32,000 nucleotides of DNA from Candidatus Saccharimonadota bacterium. Lineage in GTDB: Bacteria > Pseudomonadota > Gammaproteobacteria > Enterobacterales > Enterobacteriaceae. The stretch lies in NCBI RefSeq assembly GCF_000185985.2, contig NC_014909.2, positions 60,001-92,000 on the forward strand, in the 5' to 3' direction. This document shows positions 3,779 through 5,556 of the stretch, piece after piece; the stretch's first letter is position 1; each line of letters opens with the position of its first letter. The notes beneath the pieces were generated by a model. That model was not told the DNA's origin. It saw nothing but the letters and a program-made list of their open reading frames with translations, and did not search any database. Both the position numbers and the translations under genes were made by a program.

Positions 3779-5556
3779 TTATTTCAATATATGTATTGAA
3801 GATAATTTTTGGTTTAACATCCACAATTCTCGGCGTTCTTTGTTTGTTAATCCGAATAAACGTTCTCGTGTGATGAGCATATTTTGTTGTTGTTCAAGAA
3901 TTAAGTTATATAATTTTGTTAAAGTATCAATAAAAGTAATAATAATCATATCGTCTTTAATTATGTGTTTCCAATACGCCAATTTTTTAAGTATTATAAA
4001 ATAGTGACGATTTGTAGTTTTTTTATTATAAAAATATTCCAACAATTGTTCAGTGGTAAAATTTGGATAAAATTTACATAATTTCACCAAATTTATAAAT
4101 ATTTTTATATTATTATGTTTAAGTGTTTCTAATCCTTGTATGGTTGGAACTAATTTAGCAAGTTTTGGGTTTTGTATCAATAACCCTATTAAAATATGTT
4201 CTATGTTATATGTAATATTATGTTTATATTGTGTGAGGGGGATATTTTTTTTTGGTTTTTTGAGTAGTTGTTGTAATTTACTATCGTCTAAGATTCCTAT
4301 TATTTTACTTAATTTTTGCTGTAAACATAATTGTAATATTTGTCCTGGAATTTGATTAATCATGGGTAATATTAAGCTGCTGAGCTTAACTCGCCCTTCT
4401 AGTGTGTGTAAATTTATTTTTTTAGATAAGGTTTCAAATAGAAAATTAGATAAGCTTTGAGCTTTCGATATTTGTTTTAAAAAACTGTCTTTTCCTATTT
4501 TACGTATTAATGTATCGGGATCTTCTTGATTTGGTAAGAACATAAAAGATATTTCTTTGTTGTCAGTAAGATATGGTAGTACAGTATTAAGTGTGCGCCA
4601 GGCAGCTTTTTTTCCAGCATTATCACCATCATAGCAACAAATAATTTGGTTAGTGACACTATATATTAATCGAATGTGGTAAACTGACATAGATGTTCCT
4701 AATGTCGAAACTACATAATTTATTCCAAATTGAGTTAAGATTATTACATCCATATATCCTTCTACTAATAGAATATATGGAATATTTTTATGTTTTTTAC
4801 AAGTTTCGTAAAATCCATATAAATATTGGTTTTTTTTAAAGATAGTAGTATCTGGAGAATTTAAGTATTTAGGTTGTTTAGGATTGTGTTGAATGGTGCG
4901 TCCGCCGAATCCTATTATTTTTCCTTCTTGGTTTTTCATAGGAAAAATGATACGTTCTCGAAATCGATCATATTTATTTTTTTTTCCGTTTTCTACGTAT
5001 ATGCCTGATTGTGTTATTAATTTTGAATTGTATGTGTTAAGGTTTAAATTTTGAGCAATATTATTCCAGCCCATAGGAGCAAATCCAATATTAAAGTTTG
5101 CAATGGAATTTGTGGTTAGTCCTCTATTTTGTAAATATTTGTGAGCATAAGCATATTTTTTATTTATTAAATTGTTTTGATAATAATTAGAAACATCACT
5201 CATAAATTTATATAAATTGTTTTCATGGGAAATTTGGCTGGTAGTATTGTGATAAAAAAAATTTTTTATGCTAATACCATGGATAGTAGATAATTTTTTT
5301 ATACATTCAATAAATGTATATTGATCATAATTCATTAAAAAATTTATGATGTTACCATGTGCTCCGCAACTAAAACAATAATAAAATTGTTTTTTAAAAT
5401 TTACAGTAAAAGATGGGTATTTTTCTGAGTGAAATGGACAACAAGCAATAAAATTTGAGCCTTTTTTTTTAATGGGATTCGTTGATTGATTAAATCAACA
5501 ATATTAGTACGAGATATTAATGTCTCTATTAATGTTTTTGGAATGCGAGCAATCAT
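3779..5556 (-). CDS. dnaG: DNA primase DnaG, interrupted by a 1-nt frameshift in an A9 run (N-terminal 51-aa fragment 5556..5401; main ORF 5335..3779)
   Basis: The 518-aa track ORF matches the DnaG TOPRIM and C-terminal domains (LLVEGYMDVI, CYDGDNAGKKAAWR). Upstream, ATG 5556 opens MIARIPKTLIETLISRTNIVDLINQRIPLKKK, which matches the E. coli [32 protein letters not shown]. The zinc finger [37 protein letters not shown] follows in the frame of the main ORF. The two frames differ by one base at the run 5462-5470. Confidence 0.88.
5462..5470 (-). repeat. A9 homopolymer (T9 on + strand) at the dnaG frameshift site
   Basis: Block 5461-5470 reads c followed by nine t. The distance from start codon 5556 to the in-frame ATG at 5335 is 221 nt, which is not a multiple of 3. 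A10 would join the frames. Confidence 0.95.

Follow-up and report, generated by a model that had tools for sequence, protein, structure and literature searches.

A one-base deletion in a poly(A) run splits the primase gene dnaG of Candidatus Blochmannia vafer, with probable rescue by slippage

In the AT-rich genomes of insect endosymbionts, single insertions or deletions (indels) in long A runs can put an otherwise intact, conserved gene out of frame. In Buchnera aphidicola and Blochmannia pennsylvanicus, such genes have been shown to yield heterogeneous transcripts, and some of their frameshifts are shared between populations or species (Tamas et al. 2008 PNAS and Wernegreen et al. 2010 MBE, as summarised in PMC3017870 and PMC5009743). 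Here we analyse a lesion of the same form in dnaG, the primase gene of the ant endosymbiont Candidatus Blochmannia (Blochmanniella) vafer BVAF (GenBank CP002189), within a stretch of 32,000 nucleotides (nt) that we call the window. Like the Buchnera and B. pennsylvanicus genes, dnaG carries one indel in a long A run; unlike them, its lesion is confined to B. vafer and is known here from sequence. The closest precedent is the lesion itself. Williams & Wernegreen (2010, BMC Genomics 11:687; PMC3017870) described the poly(A) frameshift of B. vafer dnaG, named the gene in their abstract and proposed slippage as its rescue, so that genome, gene, indel and proposed rescue coincide and the lesion differs in nothing. 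Hence the lesion and its interpretation were already known, and the value of the present analysis is confirmatory. Its additions to the 2010 paper are a -1 ribosomal alternative, the recognition of a RefSeq gene model that starts wrongly at an ATT codon, the origin of the run in a glutamine-to-lysine change, and a check of about 26 homologues.

Two dnaX genes offer further comparisons. In Thermus thermophilus dnaX (Larsen et al. 2000, as described in PMC5009743), the messenger RNA (mRNA) has an A run of the same length, nine, in a gene that also serves replication, and RNA polymerase adds A's to it. There, the full-length protein comes from the zero frame, and programmed slippage gives a shorter product at about 1:1. 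In B. vafer dnaG, slippage would instead restore the frame, and decoding without it yields a dead end of 51 amino acids (aa). Escherichia coli dnaX shares with B. vafer dnaG an identical heptamer, A_AAA_AAG, in the correct phase and with the same direction of shift. Two stimulators accompany the E. coli site, a Shine-Dalgarno-like element upstream and a stem-loop downstream; B. vafer dnaG has neither, and its site is not conserved in relatives.

The lesion is simple to describe. From its ATG, frame 0 of dnaG reads MIARIPKTLIETLISRTNIVDLINQRIPLKKK, runs through nine A's, continues as AQILLLVVHFTQKNTHLLL and stops at a TAA, giving a product of 51 aa. This short open reading frame (ORF) matches Pfam Zn_ribbon_DnaG on its own (expectation value, E, 7.7e-4). 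The remainder of the primase lies in a frame offset by 2, equivalent to -1 (5556-5335 = 221 = 2 mod 3), and this frame contains no ATG, GTG or TTG between the TGA at 5497-5495 and the zinc-finger Cys codons. Adding one A to the run (A10) produces a 592-aa primase that is identical at 592/592 positions to the product deposited by the submitters (ADV33468.1). A first-pass annotation of the window had split dnaG at this A9 tract, and every one of its coordinates (ATG 5556, T9 5462-5470, TAA 5403-5401, TGA 5497-5495) proved correct, as did the 221-base offset, its estimate of about 592 aa for A10 and its statement that the downstream frame has no usual start codon ahead of the four-cysteine finger.

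Public databases treat the gene in two ways. In GenBank, ADV33468.1 is the frameshift-corrected 592-aa product of strain BVAF, in keeping with the decision of the genome authors to annotate frameshifted genes as intact ORFs (PMC3017870). RefSeq splits the gene into a 51-aa 'hypothetical protein' (P0122, 5401-5556) and an overlapping 564-aa primase, WP_320408529.1 (3779-5473); ADV33468.1 and WP_320408529.1 fall into one 90% cluster and come from the same 722,585-bp genome. Since WP_320408529.1 begins MKKKGSNF, and 564 codons plus a stop were counted back from 3779, its start must be the ATT at 5473-5471. By inspection, the 25 nt upstream of this ATT contain no purine-rich Shine-Dalgarno motif. 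The two-feature model hides the recoding event, which is a practical warning to users of the annotation. The first-pass annotation had spoken of an annotated ORF beginning at Met 5335 and lacking the zinc finger. The missing finger was borne out, as the 518-aa ORF has no Zn_ribbon match; that ORF is a mechanical call only, the public models being 592 aa or 564 plus 51 aa.

With the frame corrected, the product has the make-up of a DnaG primase: a zinc ribbon, a DNAG_N plus Toprim core and a C-terminal DnaB-binding domain. Pfam Zn_ribbon_DnaG (PF01807) covers residues 6-98 of the A10 reconstruction, straight across the junction (E 1.3e-35), and this complete zinc ribbon is obtained only when the frame is corrected at the run. 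It is followed by DNAG_N (PF08275, 2.9e-40), Toprim_2 (PF13155, 2.5e-15), DnaB_bind (PF10410, 7.9e-11) and DnaG_DnaB_bind (PF08278, 1.5e-23). In a comparison of residues 1-103 with 1D0Q, a solved zinc-binding domain of primase, positions 3-98 of both pair without gaps (E 1.3e-24). As this alignment crosses the junction, what is encoded upstream of the run belongs to the solved fold. The four zinc ligands, C40, H43, C61 and C64, are all encoded 3' of the frameshift.

The codons cut off by the frameshift look as constrained as the rest. Identity to the two nearest orthologues (P0002 and P0003) is 75% over residues 1-32, compared with 65-67% over the whole gene. In codons 1-31, B. vafer differs from one relative, L001, at 21 nucleotides, 13 of them third positions, much as in the zinc-finger codons downstream. 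No second lesion was found in the 592 dnaG codons. An open frame of 518 codons has a chance probability of ~4e-19 at 27% G+C; for the 31-codon frame the corresponding value is ~0.08-0.19, so that the short open frame by itself is weak evidence and homology carries the argument. Taken as they stand, these sequences indicate that dnaG has not decayed. The constraint data do not date the frameshift, because no close relative exists.

The opening 157 nt of B. vafer dnaG were aligned with the DNA of four other Blochmannia (L001-L004). Only one gap appears, of 1 nt; it is in the B. vafer sequence and falls within the run. In most relatives the run is interrupted by a C, reading TTA AAA AAA CAA GG (K-K-Q-G; AAAAAAACAAGG), and L001 has an in-frame A9, TTG AAA AAA AAA GGT. 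The other Blochmannia homologues are in frame across the junction, which places the B. vafer lesion outside the subclass of ancient conserved frameshifts, and dnaG is retained intact in all other Blochmannia. The short homologues of 556-571 aa (P0016-P0027) were considered as possible carriers of the same frameshift and rejected: ahead of the called start, their DNA still encodes the conserved N-terminus in frame, so that their shortness is an artefact of start calling. In two of the relatives, both Logan assemblies, we noted an ATT where the others have the dnaG ATG (L003:1426-1428; L004:1441-1443, or 1435-1437). This ATT sits at the conserved N-terminus (...RIPN..INEL.SRTNIV...) and is preceded by an AAGGA Shine-Dalgarno motif. 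An ATT start there accounts for gene callers having taken internal GTG or TTG codons, with truncated proteins of 556-571 aa as the result. The observation suggests that dnaG may tolerate very weak initiation in this Blochmannia clade; an assembly error is possible.

The finished B. vafer genome supports A9 as the true tract length. It was assembled from Illumina reads at a mean coverage of 542x after removal of duplicates, its consensus was reviewed manually, and it represents the majority genotype (PMC3017870). A second genotype recovered from the same reads is 382 single-nucleotide polymorphisms and 37 indels apart, with only two coding indels, both of 3 nt (PMC3268670); the two genotypes, which come from one colony, differ at a synonymous divergence (dS) of 0.0017. 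As no frame-changing coding indel separates them, both carry the out-of-frame run. Sequencing error and tract-length polymorphism, which the first-pass annotation had listed among its explanations, are therefore unlikely: the coverage and the second genotype argue against a miscall or a substantial A10 allele, and low-level heteroplasmy is possible. From this literature, the nine A's are a real and fixed feature of the genome.

We consider it probable that the deletion is genuine and that dnaG is still functional, with full-length DnaG made by decoding events that regain the frame, mainly through stuttering of RNA polymerase. Under this explanation, a CAA-to-AAA change (glutamine to lysine, in line with AT bias) would have fused the K-K-Q-G coding stretch into an A10 run, and replication slippage would then have shortened the in-frame A10 to A9. 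The first 32 codons would thereby have lost register with everything downstream, the zinc finger included. A minority of decoding events regaining the frame at the run would supply the 592-aa protein. Chiefly, RNA polymerase would stutter on the homopolymer, whose 9 nt roughly equal the RNA:DNA hybrid in length, and the mRNA would gain one A. The ribosome may contribute by slipping -1, unstimulated, at the in-phase A_AAA_AAG, with an identical protein as the product, and the remaining events would end in the 51-aa peptide.

Several observations fit this proposal, which is also that of the genome authors and was the leading explanation of the first-pass annotation; the intact domains, the lack of decay in the upstream codons and the single-base indel all favour it. 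Bacterial RNA polymerase slips efficiently on nine A's or T's, mostly adding bases, and its RNA:DNA hybrid is 9-10 bp (Atkins et al. 2016, PMC5009743). The length of the dnaG run fits this behaviour, and the correction it needs, one added A, fits the insertion bias. With one indel in an A/T run of at least 9 nt and a gene intact on both sides of it, dnaG has the features of the slippage class. In the Buchnera and Blochmannia genes that have been measured, 12-50% of transcripts were frame-corrected (PMC5009743), and the genome paper quotes ~30% (PMC3017870). We infer that only a modest fraction of dnaG transcripts encodes full-length primase. If most decoding ends at the early stop, dnaG expression would be reduced. 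In E. coli, primase is needed in very few copies, and if the same holds here, such a reduction would be tolerable.

Other points weigh against slippage rescue. First, the evidence for slippage comes from other genes and species and not from B. vafer dnaG. Second, the gene has two more A9 runs, both in frame, on which slippage would spoil some of the correct transcripts and lower the yield. Third, the lesion is unique to B. vafer: none of the ~26 Blochmannia homologues shares it, and it is common to only two near-identical genotypes of one colony. Searches for independent assemblies or sister strains, by exact matches to the 518-aa ORF and to RpoD and by homology to the 51-aa peptide, returned nothing beyond the same genome. 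With a lesion that is not conserved and no sister strain, nothing indicates that the lesion has been kept by selection, and its origin could be recent. Fourth, primase is not absolutely retained in the most reduced symbionts, dnaG being degraded in Carsonella. The premise that primase is indispensable, on which the first-pass annotation had relied, is thus not universal; that reading had also missed the -1 ribosomal route and the in-frame ATT ahead of the run.

Could the frame be regained mainly on the ribosome? A -1 shift at A_AAA_AAG, with tRNA-Lys(UUU) re-pairing from AAG to the overlapping AAA and continuing GGC TCA AAT, would yield exactly ...LKKK-GSNF..., the same protein as an A10 mRNA. 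The site is a dnaX-type X_XXY_YYZ heptamer, A_AAA_AAG at 5467-5461, in phase with frame 0; it is the most shift-prone heptamer known from E. coli, where a single tRNA-Lys reads both AAA and AAG (PMC5009743), and AAG is the rare lysine codon of the window (81 versus 534 AAA). The phase, however, is automatic, because deleting one A from a K-K-K-G stretch creates an in-phase A_AAA_AAG, and the heptamer AAAAAAG occurs in the window at chance frequency (24 found, 22 +/- 4.6 expected). Stimulators are also lacking. The downstream segment 5461-5380 folds with a minimum free energy of -4.3 kcal/mol (z +0.78; 155/200 shuffles fold at least as well), which leaves no stimulatory structure, and the 25 nt upstream, GATTTAATCAATCAACGAATCCCATT, contain no GGAG, AGGA or GAGG on inspection only. 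Nor is the arrangement of site and frame conserved, the relatives being in frame and most of them having the C-interrupted run. Unstimulated shifting at A_AAA_AAG in E. coli amounts to only a few percent. Without structure or Shine-Dalgarno stimulator, and with an automatic phase and a chance frequency, any ribosomal contribution would be unstimulated and is probably small, and we regard the ribosome as an unlikely main route. This route is absent from the genome paper and from the literature on endosymbiont frameshifts that we consulted. Efficient shifting at A_AAA_AAG requires a single tRNA-Lys(UUU); the transfer RNA (tRNA) genes in the window are only tRNA-Met, tRNA-Phe and tRNA-Gly. Two genes for the t6A modification at tRNA position 37, tsaD (6112-7182) and tsaE (26630-27127), and one for i6A, miaA (28652-29677), are also present; t6A37 on tRNA-Lys(UUU) affects frame maintenance on A-rich codons and could modulate ribosomal slipping at many A runs.

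A second alternative is that dnaG is a recent pseudogene or otherwise non-functional, the frameshift being a first step of erosion, with priming reduced, host-assisted or done in another way. Homopolymer indels are the recognised beginning of gene erosion in such genomes and the genome authors concede that their frameshifts may be recent (PMC3017870); the lesion is lineage-specific, and Carsonella demonstrates that dnaG can degrade in extreme symbionts. Against this stand a single lesion in 592 codons, a 518-codon frame that chance would so rarely leave open, and domains and zinc ligands that are all intact. The frameshifted genes, dnaG among them, evolve at a normal rate on the B. vafer branch (1-1.5x), with no acceleration; dnaG, dxs, pth and ribF are frameshifted only there (PMC3017870). 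The lesion is present in both genotypes, while selection removed frame-breaking coding indels elsewhere (PMC3268670), and dnaG is intact in every other Blochmannia. We think pseudogenisation quite improbable.

Less probable again, in our judgement, is an adaptive version of rescue, in which A9 has been retained as a throttle on primase in a slow-growing, polyploid symbiont, with polymerase and ribosome both correcting the frame. If true, it would be a replication-gene analogue of programmed recoding that arose de novo from mutational bias.

We also doubt strongly that an N-terminally truncated primase is the real product, whether started at ATT 5473 (564 aa) or by re-initiation at Met 5335 (518 aa). 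The NCBI pipeline did choose the ATT, and the apparent use of ATT at the canonical dnaG start in L003 and L004 implies that weak starts are tolerated. The B. vafer ATT, however, has no Shine-Dalgarno motif and lies inside the translated upstream frame. A protein started there would keep the zinc ligands and lose the first 28 residues, which are conserved in Blochmannia, E. coli and Geobacillus and belong to the solved zinc-binding fold, and the skipped codons still have an ATG of their own in the orthologous place behind rpsU. The product from Met 5335 would have no zinc finger at all, and a primase without its zinc-binding domain cannot initiate primers, as biochemistry on the E. coli and Geobacillus enzymes established.

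That A9 is a miscall, or only the majority allele beside a true or co-existing A10, has very little to recommend it: homopolymers are error-prone on some sequencing platforms and the consensus is the majority genotype of a colony with two, but the deep and manually reviewed coverage and the lack of frame-changing coding indels between genotypes already described are joined by the authors' deliberate curation of the frameshifts and by the same class of lesion in eight genes, as well as in other Blochmannia and Buchnera genomes (PMC3017870).

Table 1. Coordinates of dnaG, its lesion and its flanking genes in the window
Feature	Position	Strand	Remark
rpsU (ribosomal protein S21), upstream gene of the conserved arrangement	5692..5907	-	Window ORF; order repeated in L001-L004
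dnaG 5' segment, frame 0, ATG 5556 to TTA AAA AAA AAG; residues 1-32 (MIARIPKTLIETLISRTNIVDLINQRIPLKKK) of the zinc-binding domain	5461..5556	-	
TGA closing the -1 frame upstream; frame open only from 5494	5495..5497	-	
ATT in the -1 frame, start codon of RefSeq WP_320408529.1 (564 aa, MKKKGSNF...)	5471..5473	-	
Run of nine A (T9 on the + strand), site of the deletion, one base short of an in-frame A10; proposed RNA polymerase slippage site	5462..5470	-	
A_AAA_AAG heptamer, in phase with frame 0 (codons AAA AAA AAG)	5461..5467	-	Read directly from the sequence
dnaG 3' segment, -1 frame, GGC (Gly33) 5461-5459 to the ORF-ending stop	3779..5461	-	Rest of zinc ribbon, DNAG_N, Toprim and DnaB-binding domains
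CHC2 zinc-ligand codons: Cys39/Cys40 5443-5438, His43 5431-5429, Cys61 5377-5375, Cys64 5368-5366	5366..5443	-	1D0Q alignment
TAA ending frame 0, nineteen codons past the run	5401..5403	-	Unshifted decoding gives the 51-aa peptide (RefSeq 'hypothetical protein', P0122)
First canonical start codon of the -1 frame, ATG (Met75 in the full-length protein)	5333..5335	-	518-aa ORF without Zn_ribbon match
Second dnaG A9 run, in frame (...GKKNK...)	4977..4985	-	
Third dnaG A9 run, in frame (...KKPKKN...)	4245..4253	-	
rpoD (sigma-70), downstream gene of the conserved arrangement	1752..3614	-	Window ORF; L003 neighbours with sigma-70 Pfam domains

The surroundings of dnaG are those of a bacterial DnaG primase gene. 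The window has a G+C content of 27.2%, and its ORFs give the minus-strand order rpsU-dnaG-rpoD, the order of the enterobacterial macromolecular-synthesis operon, which recurs in the four relatives L001-L004. The divergent neighbour of this group is tsaD. A scan for terminators around rpsU-dnaG returned 0, and promoter-like sites there were at shuffle level.

Homopolymer runs of at least 9 nt number 11 in the window, and all lie inside coding ORFs: two U runs in dedA (981-989, 1047-1055), one in rpoD (2694-2702), three in dnaG (4245-4253, 4977-4985, 5462-5470), two in mscM (23010-23018, 23468-23476) and three in amiB (27337-27346, 27475-27483, 27485-27493), one of the last being an A10. Only the dnaG run at 5462-5470 breaks a frame. 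The overlapping ORFs at 26630-27127 and 27093-28475 were considered as a second split gene and rejected, as they are two distinct genes, tsaE and amiB.

Elsewhere in the window, we noted possible signs of shortening and loss. A DedA-family ORF (847-1398, 183 aa) covers no more than positions 28-181 of its family profile, which has 219 positions, contains two in-frame T9 runs and ends 67 nt before tRNA-Met; it appears C-terminally shortened relative to E. coli-type homologues. The folB-cca interval (8339-9507) spans 1.17 kb at 19% G+C; it lacks any stop-free segment of more than 60 codons and has no Rfam match. From the E. coli order plsY-folB-bacA/uppP-cca, uppP would presumably be expected here, and the interval is probably a fully eroded gene. 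Three spacers are free of ORFs: amiB-miaA (28476-28651, 176 nt), miaA-hflX (29678-30242, 565 nt) and psd-orn (24745-25413, 669 nt). In E. coli, the corresponding places hold mutL, hfq and rsgA, respectively. The absence of mutL from its syntenic place, a statement about that locus only, would bear on homopolymer instability.

If RNA polymerase stutters on every run of at least 9 nt, the intact genes of the window that contain such runs would bear a cost in expression. The dnaG lesion illustrates that extreme AT bias makes slippery runs that break even core replication genes. Error-prone decoding may, in turn, keep such broken genes working, and this bears on the limits of genome erosion in endosymbionts.

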